Below, one piece after another: positions 5,714-54,924 of a DNA stretch of 64,000 bases (the first letter of the stretch is position 1; the number at the start of each line of letters is the position of its first letter). The DNA lies in assembly GCA_020718085.1 (NCBI GenBank), contig DYDB01000001.1, positions 218,891-282,890 of the forward strand, in the 5' to 3' direction. A model generated the notes under the pieces. It searched no databases, was not told where the DNA came from, and worked only from the letters and a program-made list of their open reading frames with translations. This DNA is from Micavibrio sp. Its GTDB lineage: Bacteria > Patescibacteriota > Minisyncoccia > Moranbacterales > GCA-2747515. Position numbers and translations under genes: made by a program.

Positions 5714-5735
5714 TATGTGATACATCCATATAAAT

Positions 5736-5767
5736 GCGATAAGGAACATTTCCTTATCGCATTTTTA
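5736..5767 (+). terminator. Intrinsic terminator after the AAA ATPase gene
   Basis: GCGATAAGGAAC-ATT-TCCTTATCGC hairpin followed by ATTTTT. Confidence 0.6.
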
Positions 5768-5769
5768 AT

Positions 5770-5798
5770 TTGACAAATGATCTTATGTATAGTACTAT
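5770..5798 (+). promoter_or_regulatory. Sigma70-like promoter (TTGACA-17-TACTAT)
   Basis: TTGACA at 5770-5775, 17-nt spacer, TACTAT at 5793-5798, upstream of the 5877 gene. Confidence 0.3.
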
Positions 5799-5876
5799 GA
5801 GCAGTTGATATTTAAAAAAATATCATAATATTACATGTTATTTAACACTGTCACCATATAACGAGGGGATTAAAAG

Positions 5877-7118
5877 ATGCAAGAACTTATAGATGCTGGT
5901 CTGTATGGAAAGGGACTCATCTGCATTGATGACGCAGAACTTATTAGAAGATATAATGCATGTCTGGAGATGATTGGAGTGAAAAAAGTACGGCGAAAAA
6001 GAATTTGTATTGATCGCATGGGATGGAGTCCTGATGTTGCTGCGACGCTTGGTAATAATTTTTACTTGTCGAGAGGAGAGGCAAATCCATTCGCTATTAT
6101 CATCACGCCAAAACAAAAGTATGCGCCGATCTACTTTCCATGTCATTCGTTTGATTGGGAGCTCATGCATCAGTGGTTTGTGATATATGAACAAGAAGTT
6201 TCTGAGATCACAAAATATACTGGCATCTTGCTGGACATAGATCAGGAGGTTAATGCTTATGAAGATGAGAGAGATCTGATTATGGTTGATCATGTGATCG
6301 TTCGTGTGAGCACACCTGGTAGTTTAATAGAAGAAGCGCGATCACAAAAAGTGCTTGTGGAACGTTTTATGCAAGAAAGAAAGATCATCGAGATCCAACA
6401 TATTGCACGTGATCTCATGGTATCGCGTGCAAAGATTGGTGATATGCGCAATCAAAAAGTCTTCATTGACGATCTGCGTTTTGAGGGTTTATGTGTATAT
6501 TATACCAGAGCGTTTGGAGGCACATTTGTGCTTTGCCAAAATGGTGAACATGCATCCGATGAGTACTTTATTCTCAATAAGAGCATTGCTCGTAGTTCAT
6601 CTGGAATTAACTCAGTGATTGATAAGAATATTTTATCAAAGCTGGAATCTTTTCATTTGATCGATCTGGGAGTCACATTTTGGATCGATAATGTAACTTG
6701 TTTGGAATTAATAAGAGATTCCTTTTTGATGGAGTATTTAGACAAGTATGATCCTGATCTCAATTTTGTTGAGCTGAGCCCCGCACTCAAAAAGGGCATG
6801 ATCGCTGAGATTTCATCAGAATTGCCGATCGAATATCACGAGCTTGATATCTTGATACGGTCTATTCGTAGCAATCGTAGTCCGGCTAACATTCCTGACA
6901 TTATAAGACCATTTCTCATGTATCCGCGGAGGGAATTGTCGATCGTTACTATTGAAGTGATCTGGCATATCCTCACTCTGGTGTGTGATGGAAGAAATGT
7001 GCTCATGCTCTATCTGTATGATAAAGATAGTTTCATGCAAATGTTTGGAACGTGGAAAACTCCCCGTAAAACATGGGCGATAAAGGTCATCCAAAAATAT
7101 CATGTAAATCGGTTATAA
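5877..7118 (+). CDS. Hypothetical protein
   Basis: 413-aa ORF with a GAGGGGA RBS; no recognisable domain. Confidence 0.6.
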   Translation: MQELIDAGLYGKGLICIDDAELIRRYNACLEMIGVKKVRRKRICIDRMGWSPDVAATLGNNFYLSRGEANPFAIIITPKQKYAPIYFPCHSFDWELMHQWFVIYEQEVSEITKYTGILLDIDQEVNAYEDERDLIMVDHVIVRVSTPGSLIEEARSQKVLVERFMQERKIIEIQHIARDLMVSRAKIGDMRNQKVFIDDLRFEGLCVYYTRAFGGTFVLCQNGEHASDEYFILNKSIARSSSGINSVIDKNILSKLESFHLIDLGVTFWIDNVTCLELIRDSFLMEYLDKYDPDLNFVELSPALKKGMIAEISSELPIEYHELDILIRSIRSNRSPANIPDIIRPFLMYPRRELSIVTIEVIWHILTLVCDGRNVLMLYLYDKDSFMQMFGTWKTPRKTWAIKVIQKYHVNRL

Positions 7119-8458: not shown

Positions 8459-8528
8459 TGAAACGTTGTTCGTTACAAATTTAGAACAGGTTGTTCACTC
8501 ACATATCACTCAGACAATGGAGGTTGTC

Positions 8529-9746
8529 ATGGCAGAACTGAATGAAGAAATGGTAGAAGAGAGAAGAAGTGCGTTTGGGCATGTGCTCGACGAAATTGTG
8601 AGCATTTTCAATGCGGAAAAGCGTCAAAATGTCAAAGATCAACGTAAAGATGAGAAGATCGTCAAAAAGATCCTGTATTTTTTATGGGATTATCTGATCG
8701 CCGGTCCGTTGTATGGTTTCTTTTGTGCTGTTGTTTCAATTGGTAAAGCATCGTGGGATGCGGGGTCGTCGTATAATAGTTATGTCAAACAGGTGATCGC
8801 TCGCAAGGAAAAGCCACTCGTGCATTATCTGATGTATGCTGCGTATGTGCTATGGCCCGTTGCGTTGTTTATTATTCCAATAGGCATTTGTGTTATCACC
8901 ATAACTCTACTTGTTGTGGTGGATCAAGTTGTCTACCCGGAATTTCCGATCAATCCAAAATTTGACCAAAAATCAAATGCGGAACTGTCTTTGGATCGCA
9001 AAAGCGCACTGCTATTTGAGGCAGCGACTCATCAAATGAACAAAGAAATGCAGTCACTTACCGGTTGGACGCCGAATGACTTGTCTTGGATGCCGACGAA
9101 GTGGTTTGATAATAAACTGAATCGTCAAATAGGCGTGCGAAACGCAACGCGATTGTTGACTGCTGCGATGTCTGTAAAATTTACAAATCTCGGACATGGT
9201 ACGAAAGAAAATGATGATACGCGAGAAGGTAGCGCAAATCTCAGCTCACCAGAGAACAAATGGAACATGGGCTTTGGTGATACGGAAGTTAATTTCATTG
9301 ATGGGCTTAACCTCTTGCAAAAGTATATTACAGAGGCAAATGCGGCGAATGGAAAAAAAATGTCCAACATTAATCCACCTGATCTGCTTGATATCATGAA
9401 TGTGATTATTTATGATGTTCTGCGAGAACCCCTGGGACGATTGCAGGAACAGGAAAAGCCTCTTACGTTTAGTGAATTGGATGACGAAGTGTATTATGCA
9501 CAAGGTACGGCAATTGTAGTGCGTGATGTGCTTGTGGCACTGCGGTCTACATTTCCGAGTATCATGGTCAAAGGAGAGTCAGAGAATCTCAATATGGCAA
9601 TCGAAAAATTAAGCAAGATGGCTGATGATAATCCGTATTGCGTATATTCGATCATGGAATTGGGAGATACACGTGCGATCTTTGCAACGTTTTACAACAG
9701 CGCAATGGAGCAGTTGAAAGTTGTCGCAAGTTCCATCAAAGTGTGA
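8529..9746 (+). CDS. Hypothetical protein with an N-terminal TM segment
   Basis: ORF 8466..9746. ATG at 8529 follows GGAGG with a 5-nt spacer. Confidence 0.6.
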   Translation: MAELNEEMVEERRSAFGHVLDEIVSIFNAEKRQNVKDQRKDEKIVKKILYFLWDYLIAGPLYGFFCAVVSIGKASWDAGSSYNSYVKQVIARKEKPLVHYLMYAAYVLWPVALFIIPIGICVITITLLVVVDQVVYPEFPINPKFDQKSNAELSLDRKSALLFEAATHQMNKEMQSLTGWTPNDLSWMPTKWFDNKLNRQIGVRNATRLLTAAMSVKFTNLGHGTKENDDTREGSANLSSPENKWNMGFGDTEVNFIDGLNLLQKYITEANAANGKKMSNINPPDLLDIMNVIIYDVLREPLGRLQEQEKPLTFSELDDEVYYAQGTAIVVRDVLVALRSTFPSIMVKGESENLNMAIEKLSKMADDNPYCVYSIMELGDTRAIFATFYNSAMEQLKVVASSIKV

Positions 9747-40458: not shown

Positions 40459-43400
40459 ATGACCTCCAAAAATAGCATTATCGACAATCATAGTCATAAT
40501 AACCTCTATCGAGCCATATCCGACGCAATAGGGTCTGACACAATAGGCATAGATATTGAGGTCGGATATTTTTATCTCTGTGGTTTTGAACTTTTGTCAA
40601 AAAAACTCAGTAAAATCAAAGTGCGATTATTAGTTGGTTCTTATATTGACCCAGAAGCTATGCCAACTTTGATAATGGAGTCGATGAAAAAATCAACGAT
40701 AAATCTTGATCCTTTTCAGCCTAGAAGCATTCCGTCATCAAAACAAGAAAGAGTCCGAGCTTTTAGCGAAGGCATTAAAAAACTTGCAAACCAAACGTCA
40801 ATATTTGACGCGCCGGAAGCACAGGAATCATACTCAATTCTCGAAAAAAAACTCGAGGATGGCTCCCTTGAAATTAAAATGACCGAAACACAAGCACATG
40901 GAAAATATTATGTGATCCATAATAAAAATGTAGGCAAAGTCTTTATGGGCTCGAGCAATTTTACGTATAATGGCCTAATTGGACAACAGGAAATAAACGA
41001 ATCTTTTGATTCAGAAGAAAAATATATAGAATATTCAAATAAATTTTCTGATCGATGGTCTGATGCTCGCAATATTGTCATTCAAGAAAAAGGAAAATCA
41101 GACATGTTTTTGAGAAAATTTAAAGATGAGCTGTGGATGAATGTGGTGCCGACCCCGTATCTTATGTATATTCGACTTCTTAATGAAATATTTGGTGCCG
41201 AATATGAAATTGATGTAACTAGCGCCTCGCAGGCAACACGAGGACAATATTTAAATCTTTCATATCAGATGGACGCGGTGAAGATGGCACTTGAAAGATT
41301 AAAAAATTATGATGGTGCTATTATTGCAGATGTTGTTGGTTTAGGGAAAAGTGTTATAGCTACTACTATTGCTGTAAACTGTCCTGACTTAAAAACGATC
41401 ATTATTGCTCCGCCACATTTAGTTCCGATGTGGGAGGATTATGTTGAAGAATTTAAACTTCGAGGACCAAAGGTTTTTAGTTCTGGGAAAATTGATGATG
41501 TTTATAATAAATACAAAAATTCTACAGAGCCTATATTATTTATCTTTGATGAAGCCCATAGATATAGAAATGAGGACACACAAGACTATCAGTCACTTCA
41601 TCAATTGACTCGCAGCAATAGTGAAAATAAGGTTCTAATATTATCCGCAACACCTTTTAATAATGATCCGAGTGATATCTTTGCGTTGATTAAACTTTTT
41701 CAAACCCCTGGTGCAGCTACACTCCGAACAGTGGAAAATTTATCAGCAAAGTTTGCAGATCTTGCAAATAGATACAAAATGCTGCGACGATTTCAAGCAA
41801 AGGGAGCCGTAACCGCAGATCAACGTAAAGAATTGGATATCAAGCGCGACGACATTGCTTCTGAACTTCGACGATTGCTCGAACCTATTATAATTAGACG
41901 TTCAAGGATAGATCTTGAAAAAATTACTCGATACCGAGAGGATTTAAAAGCTCAAGAAATTGAATTTTCAAAGATGAACGATCCAATTATCCGGGAGTAT
42001 GAGTTAGGTGAATTTACCAGCATATATCTGGATACTATAGAGCGAATTGTGCCAAATTCTAAAATCGCGGGTGGTTTAACTGGTGCGCGATATATGCCAA
42101 CGACCTACGCATTAGATATTGTTGAATTTGCTGAGAAGTATCCAGAATTGGAGGATATCAGAACTGCTCAAATGAACGTGGCTTCTTTTATGCGCAAACT
42201 TTTGGTAATGCGCTTTGAAAGTTCAAGAGCGGCGTTCAAAAGCACTCTGCAAAAATTTATCGATTCACATCAAAAAATTCTTGATTGGGTAGAAAAGAAA
42301 CAATTAGTACCGATTTCCAAGAAAGCCTACATTCCCTCTCCAGATGAGATGCCGGAAGAGGATACCGAAGAAATCAATTTGGAAGAACATGCTGAATTTG
42401 CAAACACTGAAGTTAAAAATAGTAAAAAGATTGTTTTCGTCAAACTTGAAGATCTGAATGAAAATTTTGTACCTGAGCTTAAGCGCGATATCAGTGTACT
42501 AAGAGATATTTACGAAAAATGGTTTGGTTCGCGATCGCCATTTTTATCGATGCCAGACCCAAAATTAAAACAACTCACGCTAGATATTCAAGAACATCTA
42601 GAAAATGATCCCCATCGAAAAATAATTATTTTTAGCATGTATGCTGATACTGTTGTTTATGTGGGAGAATCTCTGCAAAAGTCTGGAATTTCAACATTAG
42701 TTTATACTGCCCAGAATAGCAGAAATGATCGCAAAATAGTGAGAGAGAATTTTGACGCCGGTATCCCGGACAATAAACAATCTGATGATTTTAGAGTTCT
42801 TGTTGCAACTGATGCTTTGAGCGAGGGCGTAAATCTAAATAGAGCAGGACGAATTATTAATTATGATATTCCATATAACCCAACCAGAGTCATACAGCGA
42901 GTGGGCAGAATAAACCGCATAGATAAAAAAATGTTTAATGAGCTTTTTATTGATAATTATTTTCCTACCGAACACGGCGAGAAGGAAACAAATATTAGAG
43001 GGGTATCAACATTAAAGATGCAGATATTTAATTCCGTGGTAGGAAATGACTCGCGCACTCTCACGAAAGATGAAACCCCAGAATCATTTTTTATCGATGA
43101 ATTTAGAAAAGCAACGACTGAAGAAGAGAGTTGGGACACTACTCATAGAGAAGCATATGAGCAAGCAAAGAAAAATATTGAAGTAATTGAGCTTGCAAAA
43201 AAAATACCGATGCGAGCGCGAATTATTAGAAAAAATAAACAAGTTCAATTGGGAGTTGGCGTTGGTATTCGCGGCGAAAATAAAATTTATGCTCTTGAAA
43301 ATAGTGGACAGGCTGAGTTGGTTGATGCAGAAAAAGTATTAAATCATTTTGCGGCGAAGCAAGATGAAATTGGCGAGAAAGCCGATGATCAGTTTGGTGT

Positions 43401-43746
43401 TGTATTTGATGCAATTAAAGAAAAATTATTTGAAAAACCGCCGATGGGAAGAATGTCAAAAAACCGAACTGATGTTGTAAATATATTACGAAGCGTTCAA
43501 GAATCTCAGTATCAGAATTATTGTGATGATTTATTGCAAGTTGTGAGTGATCTTGACGATCTTTCAGAAGGTCAACTCAAGGCAATAATAAGGCTCGCAA
43601 AAAATACAGACGTATCTGATGATAAATTGCTGGAAGGCATTATTGAAATAGCGCCAGAACAGCAGATAAGAGTTAGTTTAGAAAGACAAAGCAATGAAAC
43701 AAAATCAGCAAATCTTCTATTATTCACTCAAGAGCACCGAGTATGA
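40459..43746 (+). CDS. PLD-family nuclease domain fused to an SNF2/SF2 helicase (restriction-type motor-nuclease)
   Basis: N-terminal PLD-like HxK..GSxN (HGKYYVIHNKNVGKVFMGSSNF). Helicase motifs I (DVVGLGKS), II (DEAHRYRN), III (LSATPFNN) and VI (QRVGRINR). Confidence 0.85.
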   Translation: MTSKNSIIDNHSHNNLYRAISDAIGSDTIGIDIEVGYFYLCGFELLSKKLSKIKVRLLVGSYIDPEAMPTLIMESMKKSTINLDPFQPRSIPSSKQERVRAFSEGIKKLANQTSIFDAPEAQESYSILEKKLEDGSLEIKMTETQAHGKYYVIHNKNVGKVFMGSSNFTYNGLIGQQEINESFDSEEKYIEYSNKFSDRWSDARNIVIQEKGKSDMFLRKFKDELWMNVVPTPYLMYIRLLNEIFGAEYEIDVTSASQATRGQYLNLSYQMDAVKMALERLKNYDGAIIADVVGLGKSVIATTIAVNCPDLKTIIIAPPHLVPMWEDYVEEFKLRGPKVFSSGKIDDVYNKYKNSTEPILFIFDEAHRYRNEDTQDYQSLHQLTRSNSENKVLILSATPFNNDPSDIFALIKLFQTPGAATLRTVENLSAKFADLANRYKMLRRFQAKGAVTADQRKELDIKRDDIASELRRLLEPIIIRRSRIDLEKITRYREDLKAQEIEFSKMNDPIIREYELGEFTSIYLDTIERIVPNSKIAGGLTGARYMPTTYALDIVEFAEKYPELEDIRTAQMNVASFMRKLLVMRFESSRAAFKSTLQKFIDSHQKILDWVEKKQLVPISKKAYIPSPDEMPEEDTEEINLEEHAEFANTEVKNSKKIVFVKLEDLNENFVPELKRDISVLRDIYEKWFGSRSPFLSMPDPKLKQLTLDIQEHLENDPHRKIIIFSMYADTVVYVGESLQKSGISTLVYTAQNSRNDRKIVRENFDAGIPDNKQSDDFRVLVATDALSEGVNLNRAGRIINYDIPYNPTRVIQRVGRINRIDKKMFNELFIDNYFPTEHGEKETNIRGVSTLKMQIFNSVVGNDSRTLTKDETPESFFIDEFRKATTEEESWDTTHREAYEQAKKNIEVIELAKKIPMRARIIRKNKQVQLGVGVGIRGENKIYALENSGQAELVDAEKVLNHFAAKQDEIGEKADDQFGVVFDAIKEKLFEKPPMGRMSKNRTDVVNILRSVQESQYQNYCDDLLQVVSDLDDLSEGQLKAIIRLAKNTDVSDDKLLEGIIEIAPEQQIRVSLERQSNETKSANLLLFTQEHRV

Positions 43747-46700
43747 AAAATCCTATTTTTGAAAATAAATTCAACGAAGAGGCTTTTAATGACTTTATTC
43801 ATGGCATTATTCCAAATCTTTCCTTGGGAAAAAAACGAGCCGAGGTTCGCACTGGCTTCAAATCAATTCAACAAATCGCTGAAGCCGGCGGAAATACACT
43901 AGATTTAGTCGTTTTTGTTGCAAAAATTGAATCATCACTTCATGCTCGTGTCGAAATTACAAAAAATACATACTCGATACTAAAAAGTCATGCCCGGTCT
44001 AATGCTTTAGTTGCCTATATTTCAGATGATTCTTCAGAATGGCGCCTCTCTCTTATTACGACAAAAGTTACGAGGACAAAAGACGGGATAAGGGAATCAA
44101 TATCAAATCCTCGCAGATTTTCATATGTCTTAGGGCCAGATGCAAAAGTGGCAACCCCTTCAAAAATGCTCCAAGGACATGTTGATTCAATTATTGATCT
44201 GGAAAATAAGTTTTCTTTGGCAGTGGTTAGCAAGGAATTTTTTACTCAAATAGCAACACAATATTCTAAACTTGTTGGAGGTACGAGGGGTGCAGGCAAA
44301 AAGGCAATAGTTTTCAAAAGAACGCTTAAGCTTGGGGATGAAAATGATGCCGTCAATGCAAATTTTGCCATTCGACTTATTGGTCGATTAGTTTTTTGTT
44401 GGTTTTTGAAACAAAAGAAAGGACATGCGGACAATCCGCTTATACCGTCTGAGATTCTATCTGTTTCCGCAGTAAAAACAATTAGTGATTATTATCATTC
44501 AGTTTGTGTGCCACTTTTTTTTGAAGTGTTAAATAAACCACAATCATCTAGACCGACATTTTATTCTCATGCTGAATTATTTGATAAAGTTCCTTTCTTG
44601 AATGGTGGTTTGTTCCAAGACCATGTCGAAGATAATCACAAATTCAATCGTGCCACCGGGATGAGTGAACGTCGCGGTGTGGTAGATGTGCCGGATGTTT
44701 GGTTTTCTGAATTATTTCAAATTTTTGAGGAGTATAACTTTACTATAGACGAAAACACTTCAATTGATACCGAGCTTTCAATCGATCCGGAAATGTTAGG
44801 ACGAATTTTTGAAAATTTATTGGCAGAGGTAAACCCGGAGACGGGCGCAAGCGCTCGCAAATCAACTGGCAGTTTCTACACACCTAGAGAGATTGTGGAT
44901 TTTATGGTGGAAGAATCACTCATCGCTCACCTAAAAACACAAATTAATATATCCGAAGATAAGTTACGTGCTCTTTCATCTTACGATTTGGACGATGATG
45001 TATCACAACCAATAGACCCGCAAGAACGAAAACTTATAGTTGAAGCAATTCATAATACCACAGTTTTAGATCCGGCCTGTGGCTCGGGCGCATTCCCAAT
45101 AGGAGTTCTCCAGAGATTGGTTCATATGCTCGGTGTTCTTGACCCGGAATGTTCAATTTATTTAAGCAAGATTCCGCCCGAAGTTCGCAGGGAATTACAA
45201 AAACATAGCCTTACTTATGTGCGGAAACTTGGAGTAATTAGAGAGTGTATTCACGGAGTAGATATTCAGCCCATCGCTATAGATATTTCGCGTCTGCGAT
45301 GTTTTCTGACGCTTGTAGTAGATCAGCAAGTTGATGACAGCGCTCCAAACAGAGGCATTGAACCATTGCCAAACCTTGATTTTAAGTTTGTTTGCGCCAA
45401 CACTCTTGTTAAACCACCAGTTCATGAAGGTCCGCTATTTGGTGATGAGTTTGCGACTGCTTTAGGCGAGCTTATTGATGAATATTTTGCGCCGGTTGAC
45501 CAGTTGCACAAACTGGAGACGGCGCGAAAATTGCAGCAATTGATTAGTGATAAAACAAAAAAAGAGTTAGAAAATATTTTGAAGTCATATAGTTACATAA
45601 AAGATGAAAAATACAAAAAAGCACTGGCTCAGAAAAATGAAAAATCAGACGCTGAAAGAATGCGCATAAATAATTTGTGGGGAAGTTATGAAAATATTTT
45701 TCAAAATAAACCAGTTGGCTTTTTTGATACCAGATATTTTTTCCCCACAGTATTTCGCAATGGTGGATTTGATATTGTGATTGGAAATCCACCTTATGTT
45801 GGAGAAAAAGGACATAAAGAGATGTTTAGGGAAATTAAATATTCACCACTGGGAAAGAGATTTTATCAAGGAAAGATGGATTTTTTCTATTTTTTCTTTC
45901 ATGTAGCTTTGGATAATTTACAGGATGATGGGGTGCTGGCGTATATAACCACTAATTATTACTTAACAGCATTGGGTGCGCGGAAACTTCGGGAAGATTT
46001 TAAAAACCGTACTATTATCAAAAAACTTGTTAATTTTAACGAGCTTAAAATTTTTAAATCGGCTGCGGGTCAACATAACATGGTTACAATTTTAACTAAA
46101 AGACAAAACAACGGAACATTAGTTAAAACATGTATAACGAAAAATACAGGCGATACAACTCCTGCTGTACTAGAAAGTATTATTGGTTGGAAAGACAATA
46201 ATACAGACTACTATGAAGTTGCTCAAAAAGATTTATATGATGGGGAAGAGAATTATTTGCGTCTAGCTGGAACAAATAGTGAGCGTAATCCTCTACAGTT
46301 CTTATTGAATAAGATAAAAGAGAAGGGTGAATTATTAGAGAATATTTGCAATATTAATACTGGAATAATGGGAGGCTGCGATTATATAAATAAAAGTAAT
46401 ATTGAATATTGCACACAAAGAGAAAGGTTACAAAAAGATATTCAGGTAGGAGATGGTGTTTTTGTTCTTGATATAAAAAATGATCGAGATAAAAAAGTAT
46501 TTGATATTATTCAAAACAATAAATCTCTAGTGAAATTTTTTAAAAATTCAGATATTGTTAAGTATCATACAAGCTATTCAACAACAAAATATATCATTTT
46601 CTCATCTAGAGAAAATGATGCAGTAAAAGATAGCAATGTAATGAAGCATCTGGATAAATTCAAACAAGTTCTTATAAAAATTCGTGAAATAAATAATGAG

Positions 46701-47201
46701 AAAACTTCAGATTACCCATTTCTTAGACGAGGAACTTCTCATCAGGAAATATTTGTATCGCCTAAAATAGTTACTCCATATCGATGTTCTGTAAACTTGT
46801 TCGCATATAATGATATTCCTTGGTATGCGAGAACTGATGTGTATTATTTATCTGAAAAAGACAAGAGAATATCTCTTAAATATATACTCGGCTTGTTAAA
46901 TTCAAAACTTTATTATTTATGGCTCTATCATCGTGGAAAAAGAAAAGGAGAGCTTTTAGAAATATTACAAAAACCTTTATCTGAAATTCCAATTAAAAAA
47001 ATACCAGAGCTAGAACAAAAACCCTTCATCGAAATTGTTGATAAAATTTTGACAATTACCAAATCCAGCGATTATTTAGAAAATCCAGCAAAAAAAGCAG
47101 AAGTCGAAAAGTACGAAGAGGATATTGATAAGCTTGTTTATAAGCTCTATGACCTTACGTATGAAGAAATTGAAATTGTGAAAAAATCAATTAAAAAATA
47201 A
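43743..47201 (+). CDS. Gamma-class N6-adenine DNA methyltransferase (Eco57I/PglX-like) with large N- and C-terminal (TRD-like) regions
   Basis: SFYTPREIV, DPACGSGAFP (motif I) and NPPY (motif IV, IGNPPYVGE). Start overlaps the upstream stop (ATGA), so translationally coupled. Confidence 0.85.
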   Translation: MKNPIFENKFNEEAFNDFIHGIIPNLSLGKKRAEVRTGFKSIQQIAEAGGNTLDLVVFVAKIESSLHARVEITKNTYSILKSHARSNALVAYISDDSSEWRLSLITTKVTRTKDGIRESISNPRRFSYVLGPDAKVATPSKMLQGHVDSIIDLENKFSLAVVSKEFFTQIATQYSKLVGGTRGAGKKAIVFKRTLKLGDENDAVNANFAIRLIGRLVFCWFLKQKKGHADNPLIPSEILSVSAVKTISDYYHSVCVPLFFEVLNKPQSSRPTFYSHAELFDKVPFLNGGLFQDHVEDNHKFNRATGMSERRGVVDVPDVWFSELFQIFEEYNFTIDENTSIDTELSIDPEMLGRIFENLLAEVNPETGASARKSTGSFYTPREIVDFMVEESLIAHLKTQINISEDKLRALSSYDLDDDVSQPIDPQERKLIVEAIHNTTVLDPACGSGAFPIGVLQRLVHMLGVLDPECSIYLSKIPPEVRRELQKHSLTYVRKLGVIRECIHGVDIQPIAIDISRLRCFLTLVVDQQVDDSAPNRGIEPLPNLDFKFVCANTLVKPPVHEGPLFGDEFATALGELIDEYFAPVDQLHKLETARKLQQLISDKTKKELENILKSYSYIKDEKYKKALAQKNEKSDAERMRINNLWGSYENIFQNKPVGFFDTRYFFPTVFRNGGFDIVIGNPPYVGEKGHKEMFREIKYSPLGKRFYQGKMDFFYFFFHVALDNLQDDGVLAYITTNYYLTALGARKLREDFKNRTIIKKLVNFNELKIFKSAAGQHNMVTILTKRQNNGTLVKTCITKNTGDTTPAVLESIIGWKDNNTDYYEVAQKDLYDGEENYLRLAGTNSERNPLQFLLNKIKEKGELLENICNINTGIMGGCDYINKSNIEYCTQRERLQKDIQVGDGVFVLDIKNDRDKKVFDIIQNNKSLVKFFKNSDIVKYHTSYSTTKYIIFSSRENDAVKDSNVMKHLDKFKQVLIKIREINNEKTSDYPFLRRGTSHQEIFVSPKIVTPYRCSVNLFAYNDIPWYARTDVYYLSEKDKRISLKYILGLLNSKLYYLWLYHRGKRKGELLEILQKPLSEIPIKKIPELEQKPFIEIVDKILTITKSSDYLENPAKKAEVEKYEEDIDKLVYKLYDLTYEEIEIVKKSIKK

Positions 47202-47278: not shown

Positions 47279-47680
47279 ATGAATTACAATAATTTTTATC
47301 AACCAAAGAAACGCGTATTTATTAGCTTTGATTTTGACAACGATCAATTTCTCAGGGATTCTCTTATTGGTCAATGTAAAAACAATGGCACGCCGTTTGA
47401 TATGGAGGATTGGTCAGTGAAAGAGCCATGGAGCCAATGTGATTGGAAAGAAAAATGTTTGTCTAAAATCAAGAGATGTAATTTAGTTATTGTTATGGTG
47501 GGAGAGAAAACACATACTTGTAGCGGAGTGTTAGCTGAAATAGCAATGGCGAAAGAAGCTCGTGTTCCAGTTGTTGGATTAAAAGGCTATTCTAATAAAA
47601 ATTGCCCCAGACCGGAAGGATTGGATGGTTACTATAATTGGGCATGGGAAAATGTAAAAAAACTAGTTAATAGATATTAG
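47279..47680 (+). CDS. Short TIR-like (ThsB / DUF1863-type) domain protein
   Basis: RVFISFDFDND..CNLVIVMVGEKTHTCSGVLAEIAMAKEARVPVVGLKG parallels ThsB SVTVVLIGAETSNRRWVKYEIEESYKRGNGLLGIYI. Confidence 0.65.
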   Translation: MNYNNFYQPKKRVFISFDFDNDQFLRDSLIGQCKNNGTPFDMEDWSVKEPWSQCDWKEKCLSKIKRCNLVIVMVGEKTHTCSGVLAEIAMAKEARVPVVGLKGYSNKNCPRPEGLDGYYNWAWENVKKLVNRY

Positions 47681-47685
47681 ATAAT

Positions 47686-48168
47686 ATGGATAAAAAGCTT
47701 CTTAATAGGTCTGTGCAAGAATACGGTGAGAATTATTATGCTCATTATTTCGAACAATACAAAATGTATATTGAAAGCACCGAAAGAATTAGCGATAGAA
47801 GGCAGAATGCAAATAATTTCTTTTTAACTATTAATACCGTTCTTATATCCGCATTTGGATTGTCTTTTCAACTTAAAGTACTAGAAAATCTTAATTGGAT
47901 AAAAATGATTTTAGCATTACTCGGGCTTGTTATTTGTGTGATATTTTGGTTTCTGCTTAGGGCTTATAAGCAGTTAAATTCTGGCAAATTTAAAGTTATT
48001 CACGAAATAGAACAAAATTTGCCATTAGGATTATATGATTATGAATGGGAGCTTCTTGAAAAAGGAAAAAATAAAAAAATTTATTATCCATTTTCTCATA
48101 TCGAATTGTTAATACCGTGGGTATTTGGTTTATTCTATTTTGTTTTAGGAGTTATTTTTATAGTATAA
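47686..48168 (+). CDS. Small 2-TM (SLATT-like) membrane protein, putative effector partner of the TIR protein
   Basis: 5-nt gap after the TIR gene. 160 aa with a soluble N-terminal helix, two adjacent TM helices, a helical C-terminus and a terminal hydrophobic segment. Confidence 0.45.
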   Translation: MDKKLLNRSVQEYGENYYAHYFEQYKMYIESTERISDRRQNANNFFLTINTVLISAFGLSFQLKVLENLNWIKMILALLGLVICVIFWFLLRAYKQLNSGKFKVIHEIEQNLPLGLYDYEWELLEKGKNKKIYYPFSHIELLIPWVFGLFYFVLGVIFIV

Positions 48169-48227
48169 AGGTTTCGCCTAAATGAATAATGCTGTTCATT
48201 TATTAATTACTTACATAATTTTAAAAT

Positions 48228-49652
48228 ATGGCAAAAAAAGAAGCTACAAACGAGCTGGTAAATTACGATAGGCAAATGGCTCAACATCAAGAGCAATTTT
48301 TGACTTTGCTTGGTAGCAAGGGTTTGCCAACAGAGAATATATTTGTTCCAATCAAAGAAAGATCCACTGTTTTTTCAAATGCTAATTCTTTGTTAGATAA
48401 TATTGATGATACAAGAAGATTTGAAGCAGTTTACGTTTCTAAATTTTTTGCTGCAGTTGCCGTTGGTTTATTTGATGCTGCATTGAATTATCTTTGGGAT
48501 GAGACGGTCGTTCATTTACGAAAAAGAGTTGAAACATATGATCTTGAATATTTTTATGACATAGCAACTTCAGCTGACAAAAGAAAAGAGCTCAAAACCA
48601 TAGATGATATTTCTAAGCTTACAGATGATGAACTGTTGAGAGGATCACTTACAATTGAGCTTATATCTGAGGTTGGATTTAGGAATATGGATCTTGTAAG
48701 GCATATGAGAAATAATGCTAGTGCAGCACATCCAAACCAAATGAATATTACGGGCCTCAAGTTAATTTCGATGGCAGAAGATTGTCTGAGGGAAGTTATC
48801 TCAACACCAATTCCGCCTGCAGCTATAGCTGTCCAGAAGCTACTTGAGAACATAAAAACTACCACAATGAAAACTGGCGATGCACAAGACGTGTCAGTGC
48901 ATTTTTCTAGTATGGGGCCAGTTCGAACACAAAGATTGGTCGAAGGGTTATTTGGAATTTTTTATAAAAGAGAAACAACTGAGGCCGTAAGACAAAATAT
49001 TAGACTACTCGCACCAATGCTTTGGCCTTACGTGGATGAACCTACTAGAAAGAATTTAGGCCTAAAGCATGCATATTTTAGTGCAAATAATCATATTGTA
49101 GAAAAGAATTTTTCCAAAGAGTTCTTGGCTGTTGTTGATGGTCTTCAATATATAACTGATCAGCATAGAGCAATAGAAGTTTCTACAGTTCTTGAGGAGC
49201 TAAAAAATGCGCATTATGGTTTAAATAATTTTTATAATGAAGTGTTGCCTGCACGGAGACTTAAATCAATAATTGGAGATGTGCCCAGTGTTCCCATGGG
49301 GATTCAAAATAAGTATATAGAAACCTTAATTGATGTATTTCTGACGAATGGATATGGCGAAGCGCGATCTGCAAATGACATATATTTCGAATTAATAAAT
49401 GGCTTTACCCCAAAACAAGCCGTTTATGCGATAACCTTAATATTTGATGAGGGAATTTCGAGTAAATTAAGAATTAAATTGTGTGCAGAAAAATATTACG
49501 AAATGATTAAAATTGTTGAACCAAAAATATCTACACATGCTGCCAAGCAGTTAATCGAACAGATAAAATTAAAAAAAACACAGGCAGGAGATATTAGGTC
49601 TGATGAAAAATTAAAGCAAGTCGTAAAATTAGCGCTAGAGGAAATTAGATGA
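48228..49652 (+). CDS. Hypothetical 474-aa protein with an Rx6H (HEPN-like) motif
   Basis: RNNASAAH within LVRHMRNNASAAHPN. No other recognisable domain. Confidence 0.55.
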   Translation: MAKKEATNELVNYDRQMAQHQEQFLTLLGSKGLPTENIFVPIKERSTVFSNANSLLDNIDDTRRFEAVYVSKFFAAVAVGLFDAALNYLWDETVVHLRKRVETYDLEYFYDIATSADKRKELKTIDDISKLTDDELLRGSLTIELISEVGFRNMDLVRHMRNNASAAHPNQMNITGLKLISMAEDCLREVISTPIPPAAIAVQKLLENIKTTTMKTGDAQDVSVHFSSMGPVRTQRLVEGLFGIFYKRETTEAVRQNIRLLAPMLWPYVDEPTRKNLGLKHAYFSANNHIVEKNFSKEFLAVVDGLQYITDQHRAIEVSTVLEELKNAHYGLNNFYNEVLPARRLKSIIGDVPSVPMGIQNKYIETLIDVFLTNGYGEARSANDIYFELINGFTPKQAVYAITLIFDEGISSKLRIKLCAEKYYEMIKIVEPKISTHAAKQLIEQIKLKKTQAGDIRSDEKLKQVVKLALEEIR

Positions 49653-49692
49653 AAAATTATAATAATTTCATTAATATTTATAAACAAAAACT

Positions 49693-49726
49693 GTAACATA
49701 ATCCAACGGCCGTGGAATTATGTTAC
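49693..49726. repeat. 34-bp palindromic cassette-boundary repeat, copy A (GTAACATAATccaACGGCCGTggaATTATGTTAC)
   Basis: 10-bp AT-rich arms, ACGGCCGT core, followed by TTTTAGAGAATAATTTA. The next start codon lies 29 nt downstream. Confidence 0.9.
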
Positions 49727-49754
49727 TTTTAGAGAATAATTTAAAAACAAAATT

Positions 49755-50477
49755 ATGACGAAAAAAATATCGTTTAGTGATAAATTAATTGAGTTTTATC
49801 TGACTGTTTTTGTTGTTACTCTCATTTATCTTTATTTACATCACGAATATTTTGCAATGGGTGTTTTAGTCGTTACAATGCCTTGGCCAGTAGTTGCATA
49901 TATTTTATATAAAAAGAGAAAAAAGCGATCTTTTTTTGAAAGTAATAATTCACTGGAAAAAATTAGAGCGTTGACTCCGATGCAGTTTGAGGATTTTATC
50001 TGTCACTTGTTTGATAAATTGGGTTATGTGACGGAAAGGGTGGGTGGCTCGAGTGATGGTGGTATTGATGTGATTGCAACAAAAAATGGGGTGAAGCACT
50101 ATATTCAATGTAAAAAATTTATTACTAGTCAGGTAAGTGTTGGTGCGATGCGTGATTTTTATGGTGCTGTGACAGATAAACTTACAGATGCAAAATCATT
50201 TTTTATCACAACAAATATTTTCACGCTTGAAGCAGAACAGTTTGCTGAAGGGAAGTCGATAGAGTTAATTGATGGGAAAAAACTGATGGACTATGTAAAA
50301 CTGGCAGGTATCGATGCGCCAGCATCGGATCAGACAAGTTCCAGTGGTGATACTGCAGAAAAGTGTCCAAATTGTGGAAACGATTTGATTCTAAGAACTG
50401 CACGAAAAGGCACTCACGCCGGAAAAACTTTCCTCGGTTGCACAAACTACCCCCACTGCCGATTTGTCAAAAAGTAA
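49755..50477 (+). CDS. Membrane-anchored Mrr-type (PD-D/ExK) restriction endonuclease with a C-terminal topoisomerase-type C4 zinc ribbon
   Basis: Mrr_cat signature GGSSDGGIDVIATKNGVKHYIQCKK..FITTNIFT..LIDG; CPNCG..GCTNYPHCRF. Its stop codon lies inside repeat B. Confidence 0.75.
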   Translation: MTKKISFSDKLIEFYLTVFVVTLIYLYLHHEYFAMGVLVVTMPWPVVAYILYKKRKKRSFFESNNSLEKIRALTPMQFEDFICHLFDKLGYVTERVGGSSDGGIDVIATKNGVKHYIQCKKFITSQVSVGAMRDFYGAVTDKLTDAKSFFITTNIFTLEAEQFAEGKSIELIDGKKLMDYVKLAGIDAPASDQTSSSGDTAEKCPNCGNDLILRTARKGTHAGKTFLGCTNYPHCRFVKK

Positions 50478-50537: not shown

Positions 50538-50762
50538 ATGATAAAAAATAGCACTGCACTGATCAAACCAAACAAATATATCTCAATAGCGATTTCATTA
50601 TTATTTGCTGGTGTATTTCTCTATCTATGTGGAAGAGATGTTAAGATGATTCTGGACAGTCAGGTGACTCTTGAGCCGATAAAATATGTGGCTGCAGTAA
50701 TATGGGGCGCGGCTACAGTCGCAATGGTTGTACGGGCATTTAAGACGATCTTTGCCAAATAA
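50538..50762 (+). CDS. Small 2-TM membrane protein
   Basis: 74 aa with two hydrophobic helices; starts 31 nt after repeat B. Confidence 0.4.
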   Translation: MIKNSTALIKPNKYISIAISLLFAGVFLYLCGRDVKMILDSQVTLEPIKYVAAVIWGAATVAMVVRAFKTIFAK

Positions 50763-50775
50763 TAACAAACCACAT

Positions 50776-51129
50776 ATGACTGATGCAGTACGAAAATATA
50801 TAGCTAAACAAGATCCCCAGAAAAAAGCGATATTGGAGAAATTACGCACATTGATCCAAAAGGCTGCACCGTTGGCGCAGGAGTGTATGAGCTATGGTGT
50901 ACCGGCTTTTAAAATTAATGGTGGCAATCTGGTCATGTACGCCGCATTCAAAAACCATATTGGCATCTATCCCGAGCCCGATACGATTCTGGCATTTACC
51001 AAAGAGCTTGCGGGATACAAAACCGCCAAAGGGTCGATCAAATTCATGTTGGATGAGCCGATCCCTTATCCTTTGATCAAAAAGATCATCACATATAAGT
51101 ACAAAAAACTCAAGGAAAATTCTAATTGA
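50776..51129 (+). CDS. DUF1801 (YdhG-like) family protein
   Basis: ORF 50728; internal ATG at 50776. Sequence resembles the YdhG/DUF1801 family. Confidence 0.55.
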   Translation: MTDAVRKYIAKQDPQKKAILEKLRTLIQKAAPLAQECMSYGVPAFKINGGNLVMYAAFKNHIGIYPEPDTILAFTKELAGYKTAKGSIKFMLDEPIPYPLIKKIITYKYKKLKENSN

Positions 51130-51145
51130 GTAAAATGCAAAATAT

Positions 51146-51394
51146 ATGACAAAAATCGCCACTGGCGTTGTGCATAAAGTCCCAAAAGATCTAAAAGAAA
51201 TGTTGATAGGAAATCCAGACATTTTGACAATATGGAATAGTTTAACCCCGCTTGCACGCAATGAATGGATCTGTTTTCTCGTAAGTGTAAAGCAGGAAGA
51301 AACACGAAGAAAACATCTGACTCGAATACAAGAGGATCTTAGCAAAGGAAAGAAACGTCCCTGTTGCTGGGCCGGATGTCCACATAGAAAATAA
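51146..51394 (+). CDS. YdeI/OmpD-associated family small protein
   Basis: C-terminal ..KQEETRRKHLTRIQEDLSKGKKR matches the YdeI-family ETRxxRi..L..GKK motif. Confidence 0.5.
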   Translation: MTKIATGVVHKVPKDLKEMLIGNPDILTIWNSLTPLARNEWICFLVSVKQEETRRKHLTRIQEDLSKGKKRPCCWAGCPHRK

Positions 51395-51411
51395 GTAAAA
51401 AACACTCAAAA

Positions 51412-51445
51412 GTAACATATTCCCACGGCCGTAGAATTATGTTAC
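51412..51445. repeat. 34-bp palindromic cassette-boundary repeat, copy C
   Basis: GTAACATATTCCCACGGCCGTAGAATTATGTTAC. Confidence 0.9.
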
Positions 51446-51474
51446 TTATTAAAATTTAATAAGATTTACATTTT

Positions 51475-52029
51475 ATGAATATTGACAATAGAAATAATCA
51501 CAACGCACGTGAAAAATCGCACGCAACGACAACTCGATCTTCCTATTTTATGATGTGGATCATTGTTGGTATCGTAGTGTTCTTAATATTTTTTATAATA
51601 CTTGTTTTTGGTATATTTTTGTTTCAAAAGAATGGGGATAATATGACAACATATGTTTCCACGTCGACTACTGATAAAAAAAACAACCATACATCACTGA
51701 AACCACATGATCCATGTCAAGATTTACTTGCAGGCATGTATCCAGACGGACGGGTTGAGATTAGGGATGAGTCAGACCTGCGCATCATATTGAATGAAAC
51801 TATGCAAAGATTGGCGCAAGTCAACAAAGACCTTTTAATTACATATGACGAGTCCTGCTTGATTTATATAATCACGACTAAATCACTTGTACACAATGAA
51901 AATGATAGCCTAGATGTAGCATACTACAATACGATTGCAAATGAATATATTACTTACTATGACATGGATTCTGATAATCTAAGAAAGGCTCTGGAAATAT
52001 TATTCAATGGAACTCCCAGATCAAAATAA
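51475..52029 (+). CDS. Hypothetical membrane-anchored protein
   Basis: 184 aa with an N-terminal TM helix; single-gene cassette between repeats C and D. Confidence 0.5.
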   Translation: MNIDNRNNHNAREKSHATTTRSSYFMMWIIVGIVVFLIFFIILVFGIFLFQKNGDNMTTYVSTSTTDKKNNHTSLKPHDPCQDLLAGMYPDGRVEIRDESDLRIILNETMQRLAQVNKDLLITYDESCLIYIITTKSLVHNENDSLDVAYYNTIANEYITYYDMDSDNLRKALEILFNGTPRSK

Positions 52030-52116
52030 TACGTCAAGAGAATCAGGTCAAGAACTTTGTGTTTTTGTGCCATATTACCTAATGATATAATATAGCCGCT
52101 ACAAAATTTCAAAAAA

Positions 52117-52150
52117 GTAACATATTCCCACGGCCGTATAATTATGTTAC
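52117..52150. repeat. 34-bp palindromic cassette-boundary repeat, copy D
   Basis: GTAACATATTCCCACGGCCGTATAATTATGTTAC. Confidence 0.9.
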
Positions 52151-52162
52151 GCTTGGTATGTT

Positions 52163-52726
52163 ATGTACAAAATAGGGAAGGTACAAAAAAAGATCCTTAT
52201 TTCACTTTTTGGTGGTGTCGCACTTGGTCTTTCACATTCGCCACGACAGTATTTTGCAACACTTTCGGTTATCCATAAAGATTGGCAAAAGATCAATCAA
52301 CGCAGTTTTGCGCGATCACTCAAGAGACTATCTCAAGAAAAACTCATCAAAGAATGTAAGATGCCGAATGGGTCATATAAACTTGTTTTGACTGCAGAGG
52401 GGAAAAAGATAGCGCATCAGTTAGACCTCTTTGGATCGGTCAAAACATTTATAAAACCCAAGAAATGGGATGGAAAGTGGCGCATTGTGATCTTTGATAT
52501 ACCGGAAAATGATCGTGTATTTCGTGATATTTTGCGCAAGCATCTCTATACATTGGAATTCAAACAATTACAGCAAAGTGTTTTTGTCTCACCGTATCCG
52601 TGTGAAAAAACGATATTAGATCTCGTGCGTCTATACAATGCAGGCAAATATGTTCGAGTAATTACAGCATCAGACATCGACAACGCTTCTGATCTCAAAA
52701 AACATTTTTTCAAAAAGGTAAAGTAA
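52163..52726 (+). CDS. PaaX-like regulator with a Cas2-fold C-terminal domain
   Basis: WRIVIFDIPENDRVFRDILRKHLYTLEFKQLQQSVFVSP resembles the Cas2/PaaX C-terminal fold. N-terminal wHTH-like. Confidence 0.5.
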   Translation: MYKIGKVQKKILISLFGGVALGLSHSPRQYFATLSVIHKDWQKINQRSFARSLKRLSQEKLIKECKMPNGSYKLVLTAEGKKIAHQLDLFGSVKTFIKPKKWDGKWRIVIFDIPENDRVFRDILRKHLYTLEFKQLQQSVFVSPYPCEKTILDLVRLYNAGKYVRVITASDIDNASDLKKHFFKKVK

Positions 52727-52756
52727 CATAATTATACGGCCGTGAGATTATGTTAC
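52723..52756. repeat. 34-bp palindromic cassette-boundary repeat, copy E
   Basis: GTAACATAATTATACGGCCGTGAGATTATGTTAC; the preceding gene's stop is in the repeat's left edge. Confidence 0.9.
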
Positions 52757-52808
52757 AATAAATAAATTATAAGTATTGTATCAATAAATTATATTAAATT
52801 GTGAATTT

Positions 52809-53309
52809 ATGAGTAAAGTTATTTGTACAGATAGAGATGGTAATACACATGAGGTTTCATCTGAAGAGTTGCGTTTTCGTCCCTCTGTGTATGGTGTGAT
52901 CATAAAAGACGGCGCACTACTTTTGTCCAAACAGTGGGATGGCTATGATTTTCCCGGAGGAGGTATTGAGATTGGTGAGGAAATCAAAAGCGCTCTTGTG
53001 CGAGAAGTCAAAGAGGAAACCGGCATGGATGTGACGGTGGGAGAAATTGTGGCATGTGAAAATTCTTTTTATAAGCCCCTTTTAGATGATTCACATAATA
53101 ACGGTTGTTTACATTCTATCCTGATCTATTATCTGTGTAATGTTATAGGCGGGGAACTCTCTATTGATCATATTGCAGATAATGAAAAAAAATACATCTC
53201 CATGCCGGAATGGATTCCCCTTGAAAATGTTGACAAGGTCAAATTTTATAATTCAATTGATAGCATGCAAATCATTCAACAAGCGCAACATGTTCTAAAT
53301 TCAATTTAA
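52809..53309 (+). CDS. NUDIX hydrolase
   Basis: Nudix box GGGIEIGEEIKSALVREVKEETG. Confidence 0.8.
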   Translation: MSKVICTDRDGNTHEVSSEELRFRPSVYGVIIKDGALLLSKQWDGYDFPGGGIEIGEEIKSALVREVKEETGMDVTVGEIVACENSFYKPLLDDSHNNGCLHSILIYYLCNVIGGELSIDHIADNEKKYISMPEWIPLENVDKVKFYNSIDSMQIIQQAQHVLNSI

Positions 53310-53330
53310 AAATTTATTAGTATACTTAAT

Positions 53331-54131
53331 ATGGATAAAGATAAAAATAAAGTTGCAATAGTTACTGGAGGTGCCTTGGGGTATATGAATGGTGGCCCAT
53401 CTATTGGTGGTTCTATAGCAATGCGCTTGGCTAATGATGGATACAGGGTGGTTGTGGTCGATCTCGGAGAGATGGGTCAAAGAACTGTAGATGTCATTGG
53501 CAAAAATGGTGGCGAGGCCATTTTCTTGCAGTTGGATGTCACAAAAACAGAAGATGTAAGGAAGATCGTGGAAACAACAGTGGACACGTTTGGTGGTGTG
53601 ACCTGTTTGGTAAATTGTGTTGCACGGTATAGTCCTGGTATGGCCAAGAATGTGGTTGATATTTCCGAAGAAGAATGGGATGAGACGCTCAAAGTAAATC
53701 TCACAGGATATTTTTTGATGGCGAAATATACTATCCCGGAAATACTGAAAACTGGAGGTGGTACGATCATAAACATCTCTTCAATCGAAAGTGACATTGC
53801 ATTGCCGAACTTTAGTGTATATTCAGTTTCAAAAGGTGCAATTGATGCACTGACACGAACTGTTGCAACTGATTTTGCCCCGCTTATCAGATGCAATTCT
53901 GTATTACCAGGGTTTGTAAAGATCGCAAATTCTGAAAATGATCGTTCGGAGCACGAATTAGAGGAATGGTATCAAAACATTGCAAAAAAATATCCGATGA
54001 AAAGAGTGTGTGAAACACATGAAGTGGCCAATGTCGTTTCCTTTCTTGCTGGCGATGAATCGTCATATATAAATGGTCAATCAATTGTTGTGGATGGTGG
54101 AAAAGGAATTGCAGATGCACATGAGTTTTAA
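53331..54131 (+). CDS. Short-chain dehydrogenase/reductase (SDR)
   Basis: TGGALG cofactor motif, YSVSK catalytic YxxxK and a 266-aa length. Confidence 0.85.
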   Translation: MDKDKNKVAIVTGGALGYMNGGPSIGGSIAMRLANDGYRVVVVDLGEMGQRTVDVIGKNGGEAIFLQLDVTKTEDVRKIVETTVDTFGGVTCLVNCVARYSPGMAKNVVDISEEEWDETLKVNLTGYFLMAKYTIPEILKTGGGTIINISSIESDIALPNFSVYSVSKGAIDALTRTVATDFAPLIRCNSVLPGFVKIANSENDRSEHELEEWYQNIAKKYPMKRVCETHEVANVVSFLAGDESSYINGQSIVVDGGKGIADAHEF

Positions 54132-54190
54132 AAAATGAAATAATTCAAGATGCTTTAGAGTACTACATAACAAGTAACTTATTAACTTTT

Positions 54191-54397
54191 ATGCATATGC
54201 AAGTCAATGAAAGCGCTATGGACCGTGTTTTGCGAGCAATCGGTGGTGTTGTGGTGTTATATTTCTCCTATATGGCATTCACAGGATGGATACAGATCGT
54301 AGGTTATGTGATCGCTGCAGTGCTCATTTTCACCGCTATTACGGGGTTTTGCGCGCTATATAAAGTACTTGGTATCAATACCAACAAGGCTGAATAG
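54191..54397 (+). CDS. DUF2892 (YgaP-like) small 2-TM protein
   Basis: RAIGGVVVLYFSYMAFTGW..IAAVLIFTAITGFCALYKVLG. Confidence 0.5.
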   Translation: MHMQVNESAMDRVLRAIGGVVVLYFSYMAFTGWIQIVGYVIAAVLIFTAITGFCALYKVLGINTNKAE

Positions 54398-54429
54398 AAG
54401 AAGTATTTTTGTTATTAAGATCATAGAGT

Positions 54430-54924
54430 ATGGTTATCGAAGCAATTCAAAAACGCAGAAGTATGCGTATGTACAAAACCGATGCGGTTTCTGAAGATGT
54501 GATCAATGAGATCATCAAAGCCGGGCAGTTTGCGCCAACAGCACATGGTACTGGAGCTGTTGAATTTCTAGTAATTACCGATGCAAAAATGAAGAAAGAT
54601 ATTTTTGACATTGTGGGTCAAGATTATGTTACAGAAGCGCCTGTGCTTATCATACCTGTTGCAACTGATGCAACAGTGCTTCCTGTGCAAGATATCTCCG
54701 TAGCAACGCAAAATATGCTTTTACAAGCGACCGATCTGGGACTAGGCAGCGTATGGAAGCATGTCGTACCTGAATGGGCAGGAAAGATCAAAGAAATGCT
54801 TTCTATTCCAGAAGGTTATCATGTGATCAATATGGTACCCATTGGATTGCCAAATGATCCGGATGTTATAGAACATGCAGATGATGATTTCAAGATCGAA
54901 AAAATTCATCGAGAAAAATGGTAA
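54430..54924 (+). CDS. Nitroreductase-family protein
   Basis: IQKRRSMRMYK..QFAPTAHGTGAVEFLVI is a typical nitroreductase N-terminus. Confidence 0.7.
   Translation: MVIEAIQKRRSMRMYKTDAVSEDVINEIIKAGQFAPTAHGTGAVEFLVITDAKMKKDIFDIVGQDYVTEAPVLIIPVATDATVLPVQDISVATQNMLLQATDLGLGSVWKHVVPEWAGKIKEMLSIPEGYHVINMVPIGLPNDPDVIEHADDDFKIEKIHREKW

Follow-up and report, generated by a model that had tools for sequence, protein, structure and literature searches.

The window analysed here is a stretch of 64,000 nucleotides (nt) of contig DYDB01000001.1 from Micavibrio sp., placed in the Patescibacteriota. Just downstream of a TIR-domain gene and a membrane-protein gene, and on the same strand, it carries a complete gene for a protein of 474 amino acids (aa), which belongs to an unnamed family of two-domain proteins. 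An earlier note, made from the letters of the sequence, had given the extent and length of this open reading frame (ORF) exactly and had pointed to the segment RNNASAAH, which is indeed found at residues 161-168 (nt 48708-48731). The ORF starts with ATG. We lean towards reading the product as a stand-alone, two-domain toxin of the abortive-infection (Abi) type, with an N-terminal HEPN RNase domain, whose putative catalytic residues are R161, N162 and H168, and a C-terminal helical sensor domain.

The note's remark that the protein has no recognisable domain was borne out, as searches of Pfam-A, PADLOC v2 and the PDB sequences, with the single sequence and with a profile, gave no match and NCBIfam returned noise only. 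The one real database match is PHROG 27609 (E 3.5e-60), the function of which is not annotated. The features of the gene and its flanks are collected in Table 1.

Table 1. Features of the HEPN-like gene and its immediate flanks in window coordinates.
Feature	Position	Strand	Basis
Complete gene, 474 aa, unnamed ~475-aa two-domain family	48228..49652	+	ORF list and homologue searches
Predicted HEPN-like N-terminal domain core, ~residues 60-195	48405..48812	+	AlphaFold model and Foldseek against PDB
Conserved block S71-T93 (SKFxAxxxxGLFDAALNYxWDET), end of helix 1 and start of helix 2	48438..48506	+	Alignments
R161/N162/H168/P169 motif block	48708..48737	+	Conservation in 75 sequences; position from the secondary structure of the model
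C-terminal all-helical domain, ~residues 200-474, proposed sensor/regulatory module	48825..49649	+	pLDDT dip at 190-210
C-terminal signature H329-x3-N333-N334-F335-Y336-N337-E338 (AHxGxNNFYNEP)	49212..49241	+	Alignments
Terminator-like hairpin (13 bp) followed by UUUU, right after the stop codon	49693..49730	+	RNA fold
Weak A/U-rich hairpin upstream of the HEPN-like gene, in the gap of 59 nt that follows the 8xMP gene	48179..48202	+	RNA fold

Conserved motif and predicted fold

Four Rx4-6H pairs are present in the protein. Shuffles of the same composition hold 1.55 of them on average and 80% of the shuffles hold at least one, hence the bare pattern is unremarkable. The RNNASAAH pair is singled out by its conservation: R161, N162 and H168 are each 99% conserved in 75 family members with identity down to 21%, whereas the remaining three pairs do not exceed 36% in the same sequences. 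The motif is kept even in subfamilies at 21-24% identity and, judged from the alignments, is the most conserved feature of the family. Other conserved positions of the 75 sequences are D83 (97%), N87 (91%), W90 (99%), P169 (95%) and, in the C-terminal signature, N334 and E338 (99% each). Among 35 sequences with identity down to 42%, R161, N162, S165, A166, A167, H168, P169 and N170 are invariant, and so is the block S71-T93.

The full-length AlphaFold model is all-helical, with a mean predicted local distance difference test (pLDDT) of 82 and a predicted template modelling score (pTM) of 0.45. The confidence dips at residues 190-210, and we separated two domains at this point. A Foldseek search of the PDB with the full-length model returned only armadillo and other solenoid matches, none of them significant, and was set aside; the outcome is probably due to the uncertain domain arrangement reflected in the low pTM.

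The N-terminal domain was predicted again alone, as residues 1-201, with a pLDDT of 85.4 and a pTM of 0.78. HEPN domains are four-helix up-down bundles, frequently with an insert that separates helix 2 from helix 3, and they carry a polar residue (N, D or H) right after the arginine of the motif (PMC3710099). In the model helix 1 comprises residues 68-78, helix 2 residues 82-103, helix 3 residues 148-166 and helix 4 residues 176-191; a helical insert (104-147) lies between helices 2 and 3 and a loop (167-175) follows helix 3, which reproduces the four-helix core and insert of the HEPN layout. R161 and N162 stand at the C-terminal end of helix 3 and H168 opens the loop, so that the predicted placement of R161-x6-H168 is that of a HEPN motif, with N162 as the polar residue after the arginine. 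The conserved acidic residue D83 is found at the start of helix 2, with the conserved N87 and W90 alongside; E92 is invariant only in closer relatives. The N-terminal core of about 135 residues is thus predicted to be a HEPN-like four-helix bundle. Structure prediction was the check that the earlier note had proposed for a HEPN fold, and in the model it came out in favour of it, with the motif where helix 3 ends and in the following loop.

Structural neighbours point in the same direction. In a Foldseek search of the PDB with the N-terminal domain 18 of the top 19 chains belong to the HEPN superfamily, with a best E-value of 0.35, which is non-significant. They represent six distinct proteins: HepT of MntA-HepT (6m6w, 6m6u, 7bxo, 5yep), HI0074 (1jog), a "HEPN toxin" (8yuf), MtlR (6kcr), 1wwp and 2q00, the last with a template modelling score of 0.70 (normalised to the target), a root-mean-square deviation of 3.1 A and a probability of 0.85. 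A seventh HEPN protein, AF_0298 (2hsb), appears at rank 37. A published survey counts 1wwp, 2hsb, 2q00, 1jog and the MtlR family among the HEPN proteins (PMC3710099). The same domain searched against viral structures (BFVD) gave unrelated low-probability noise only.

The 75 members were also scanned singly against 24,736 Pfam models at E <= 1. Two HEPN families recurred most, Abi_C with 3 members and DUF4145 with 2 (best E 0.0072 for the latter); the Abi_C match on the homologue P0256 covers the motif. Profile alignment by hhalign with a DUF4145 alignment built in this work places MRN--SAAHPN on LGN--GAHPE, with E 0.025 for the full length and 0.009 for the N-terminal domain. A precomputed comparison with PF27235 for the homologue P0045 gave a faint 'AF_1680' match, which was uninformative. 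The HEPN reading hinted at in the earlier note stands in what concerns the conservation of the motif, its placement and the HEPN structural neighbours, and falls short in that none of the matches of structure or profile is significant.

Among known systems, the AbiJ proteins with the Abi_C domain (PF14355) are alike in being single-gene Abi proteins with one HEPN domain, its R-N-x5-H (Rx6H) motif and a variable non-catalytic domain, in being frequent near restriction-modification (R-M) genes and mobile elements, and in that Abi_C is the Pfam family most often, if faintly, matched by members. However, the HEPN domain is C-terminal in AbiJ (PMC3710099) and N-terminal in the present family, the C-terminal domain of which matches none of the N-terminal domains described for AbiJ in Pfam. 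The best member reaches 13.5 bits (E 0.082) against a gathering threshold of 24 bits, and the target gives no Abi_C match at E <= 1.

DUF4145 (PF13643) contains RAZR, the ring-activated zinc-finger RNase (PMC13017515), and shares with our family the motif ending (..GN..GAHPE and ..RN..SAAHPN, in register by hhalign) and, for RAZR, a role in defence. Unlike RAZR, the family has no zinc ribbon and carries another accessory domain; its profile similarity to DUF4145 is marginal and below the Pfam threshold, with two of the 75 members matching.

HepT (5yep, 6m6w, 7bxo), the best-ranked structural neighbour of the N-terminal domain, is an RNase toxin with an Rx4-6H motif and works as a dimer. It is, however, a single-domain toxin of about 130 aa neutralised by an adjacent MNT nucleotidyltransferase, whereas proteins of this family have their own extra domain of 275 aa, and no conserved adjacent MNT antitoxin was found among the ORFs of at least 70 aa at 89 loci, where the recurrent neighbours are R-M subunits and recombinases.

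Genomic setting of the family and the window

The family is large. A word-indexed search gave more than 1,559 homologues, every one labelled "hypothetical", and an exhaustive profile search gave 1,007 clusters at 50% identity (E <= 1e-3); nearly all members are about 470-480 aa long and match end to end. In a scan of one genome per species 298 loci were found among about 185,000 species, a thin and very wide spread. The family occurs on plasmids, in prophages and in at least ten bacterial phyla: Patescibacteria, Bacteroidota, Cyanobacteria, Firmicutes, Proteobacteria, Acidobacteriota, Chloroflexota, Planctomycetota, Actinomycetota and Spirochaetes. Pfam, NCBIfam and PADLOC v2 include neither the family nor its order of domains nor its C-terminal domain, defence catalogues after 2023 not being covered. 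Literature searches on 8xMP, on the E. coli accession discussed below and on HEPN genes in hsd operons found no paper on this family.

Neighbouring genes were clustered from ORFs of at least 70 aa within 5 kb of the homologue at 89 independent loci, 8 of them from look-ups of the exact protein, 80 from species genomes, and one further locus, L010. No neighbour family occurs at more than 10 of these loci, and a conserved antitoxin or partner gene in this size range was rejected. The most frequent neighbours are HsdM (10 loci), large serine recombinases (9), HsdR (8), HsdS and Uma2 (7 each), and Fic and a kinase-helicase (4 each). In L009 the homologue adjoins Shedu. The family is carried by 91 plasmid records, of which 50 are conjugative, and by 14 IMG/VR viral contigs, several with the gene about 2 kb or less from the contig end. 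The preferred sites of the family are R-M operons, defence islands, plasmids and prophage ends. The alternative offered in the earlier note, a stand-alone Abi-like toxin, fits this setting and the lack of a conserved partner. We note that in L004 a 212-aa, RAZR-like protein with a zinc ribbon and a DUF4145 (HEPN) domain is encoded (8472-9110) 50 nt downstream of the homologue P0010, with an EcoRI-type methylase and GmrSD upstream.

One protein, WP_001460374.1, is carried by 50 of 5,426 complete genomes of E. coli (30 chromosomal and 20 plasmid copies, 48 of them at 99% identity or more). It keeps GLFDASLNYVWNE, MRNDIGASHPN and WDNFYNEPP, the blocks equivalent to those of the window protein. 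A nearly identical allele is present on conjugative plasmids of E. coli, Shigella and Klebsiella. The gene moves in a fixed module, betT (BCCT transporter), DUF2254, the gene itself and a truncated integrase (L093, 2983-9111; L095, 5046-11174), which is found on IncY-type plasmids and on chromosomes, flanked by IS1 and IS26. A PADLOC scan of the E. coli and Acinetobacter alleles gave no match.

In the window itself the gene is preceded, on the + strand, by a ThsB-like TIR gene (47279-47680; PF08937, PADLOC ThsB E 2.9e-8, PDC-M50B E 2.7e-6) and, 5 nt after it, by the membrane-protein gene (47686-48168). The earlier note had labelled this partner as a protein with two transmembrane (TM) segments; it is no generic protein of this kind and belongs to the Pfam family 8xMP, 'octameric membrane protein' (PF24838, E 1.4e-42), on which a literature search found no paper. 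Directly upstream of the TIR pair is an R-M-like pair (40459-47201, +), in which a PLD(HKD)-SNF2 helicase of 1095 aa overlaps by 4 nt an Eco57I/type IIG-like methyltransferase-specificity protein of 1152 aa (PADLOC REase_MTase_IIG E 2.4e-67). Downstream lies a gene for a 240-aa protein (49755-50477, +), which begins with a hydrophobic segment, contains a restriction-endonuclease domain, Mrr_cat (E 2e-26), and has at its C-terminus a zinc ribbon of the topoisomerase I type (E 3e-13); it is possibly a membrane-anchored nuclease similar to type IV enzymes. It is followed by co-oriented small unrelated genes (50538-54924, +), which the earlier note had called a cassette array: DUF1801, OmdA, PaaX_M, NUDIX, a short-chain dehydrogenase and a YgaP-like TM protein. 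The first 40 kb of the window have a G+C content of roughly 0.40-0.47, and at 46-50 kb it drops to 0.29-0.34; this suggests horizontal acquisition of the HEPN-like gene, the TIR pair and the last part of the type IIG gene. The best explanation of the arrangement is that the HEPN-like gene is an independent module of a low-G+C defence island, together with the PLD-SNF2/type IIG pair, the TIR and 8xMP genes and the Mrr-like nuclease.

The hairpin that follows the stop codon folds at -15.5 kcal/mol within nt 49653-49754 (z = -3.4; none of 200 shuffles as good) and suggests that the gene ends a transcription unit; a consensus terminator scan did not flag it. The hairpin in the upstream gap is weaker (-8.8 kcal/mol, z = -1.9) and 11 of 200 shuffles fold equally well. 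It is compatible with joint and with separate transcription of the gene and the TIR/8xMP pair, and no convincing sigma-70-like promoter was found in the 59 nt of this gap.

Competing explanations for the gene

The position of the gene had led the earlier note to consider it as a third component of the TIR pair. In this role it would be, for instance, an RNase effector or sensor tied to a nucleotide signal made by the TIR protein. The gene follows the pair on the same strand after 59 nt, in which neither a clear promoter nor a strong terminator was found, and a second locus, the Parcubacteria contig L005, has the TIR and 8xMP genes (5332-6237) about 800 nt upstream of the homologue. The co-occurrence across genomes, which the note had proposed as a check, largely refutes this explanation: tblastn with the two window proteins found the pair in L005 only, 1 of the 89 loci, in place of the conserved co-occurrence with TIR and effector of a Thoeris-like third component. 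Even in L005 an unrelated gene of 208 aa stands between, and the pair has diverged from that of the window (36% and 45% identity) far more than the HEPN-like gene (68%). No TIR or 8xMP neighbours are present beside P0005, at 83% identity the closest homologue, and the TIR and 8xMP genes already look like a complete two-gene system of signal producer and membrane effector. We consider a third component highly improbable.

A latent nuclease that guards R-M, as PrrC does, is a less remote, still unlikely explanation. The R-M complex would restrain the nuclease and phage anti-restriction factors would unleash it; the partner in the window would be the PLD-SNF2/type IIG pair, with its end about 1 kb upstream. 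One or more Type I R-M subunits are encoded within 5 kb at 13 of the 89 loci, and at five of these (L050, L056, L063, L071 and L087) the gene is co-oriented inside the hsd operon in the order hsdM-x-[gene]-hsdS-hsdR, which is the placement reported for prrC. PrrC and RloC are HEPN nucleases whose genes lie inside Type I hsd operons and provide a second line of defence (PMC3710099). For this hsd-embedded subset the explanation is plausible. However, Type I R-M genes are absent within 5 kb at the other 76 loci, several loci have housekeeping neighbours only, the window gene is not embedded in an hsd operon, and the enterobacterial allele moves without R-M genes. PrrC and RloC also combine an N-terminal ABC-ATPase, through which they are regulated, with a C-terminal HEPN domain, whereas neither this domain nor this order is found in the family, and no ATPase or P-loop match was obtained for the target or the 75 members.

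The protein might also be a non-catalytic HEPN-like helical protein, an RNA- or ligand-binding regulator like MtlR, or its fold may be misassigned, with the RN...H block serving other chemistry. Non-catalytic HEPN roles are known, MtlR among them (PMC3710099), the structural and profile matches are all short of significance, and some loci are purely housekeeping. Further observations weigh against the toxin reading. HEPN Pfam models stay below threshold on every family member, and the target has no Pfam match even at E <= 1. A conserved acidic residue in helix 2, usually in the form Ex3[KR], is typical of HEPN families (PMC3710099), and the exact spacing of this helix-2 motif is not present. 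The DUF4145 E-values barely beat those of a control alignment of the N- with the C-terminal domain (0.04-0.26 over 15-21 columns) and count as weak corroboration. Many loci have housekeeping neighbours (L003, L006, L007), and tblastn against 50,697 GenBank phage records found no match, despite the PHROG match. Against the non-catalytic explanation, non-catalytic HEPN families have lost Rx4-6H (PMC3710099), while R, N and H are 99% conserved here, and the patchy spread, the carriage on plasmids and prophages and the linkage to R-M are typical of conflict genes and not of regulators. A non-catalytic or misassigned protein seems improbable to us, and the stand-alone toxin with a HEPN RNase domain is the reading we retain.

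C-terminal domain, proposed mechanism and implications

For the C-terminal domain no significant match to known proteins or folds was found. That it is a second, degenerate HEPN domain was considered and is unsupported, as the control alignment of the two domains mentioned above showed no profile similarity between them. In one homologue, P0233 (507 aa, an intact free-standing ORF), the HEPN-like domain is replaced by a TIR domain of the CAP12/Pycsar type (PF10137, E 7e-28) in front of the same C-terminal domain; the gene adjoins a Gabija-like pair of an OLD-family ATPase/TOPRIM protein (636 aa) and a UvrD helicase (652 aa) in L092 (1446-8207). A constant domain with exchanged suicide effectors is the pattern expected of a sensor or regulator. 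It is possible, if doubtful, that the C-terminal helical domain with the NNFYNE signature is a new portable invader-sensing module, which would drive different suicide effectors, HEPN in about a thousand lineages and a Pycsar-type TIR in one or more. It speaks against this that the swap is known from a single sequence on a single contig: when the C-terminal domain of P0233 was used as query, P0233 itself was the only match, and the fusion is a singleton. As a separate observation, the homologue P0135 is extended at its N-terminus and carries part of a PRiA4_ORF3 domain there (residues 30-64), and a 'pRiA4b ORF-3 family protein' is encoded (L093, 1522-2067) about 5 kb upstream of the allele on an E. 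coli plasmid; the two occurrences may be coincidental.

We infer the RNase chemistry, the activation by oligomerisation, the trigger and the abortive infection of the following scheme. The N-terminal domain would be a metal-independent endoribonuclease and, as in other single-HEPN proteins, two copies would be needed for a composite active site. In the resting state the protein would be kept inactive by its own C-terminal helical domain. The latter would sense a cue derived from the phage or plasmid, or that a neighbouring R-M complex has been lost, and would then release or oligomerise the HEPN domain. RNA (tRNA, rRNA or mRNA) would be cut and translation halted before the cycle of the invader completes.

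HEPN RNase toxins are already familiar in prokaryotic immunity, and single-gene Abi proteins that combine a HEPN toxin with a sensor are well known. Naming and testing the family would fill an annotation gap in maps of defence islands, as about 1,000 clusters from many phyla are invisible to Pfam, NCBIfam and PADLOC v2. WP_001460374.1 would be a tractable E. coli representative, and such work could reveal what the C-terminal domain senses. If the portable-sensor reading were true, the family would be an unrecognised single-gene immune system on conjugative plasmids of Enterobacteriaceae and in about 1% of complete E. coli genomes, and its trigger might be a phage or plasmid cue of a new class, or lost Type I R-M activity.

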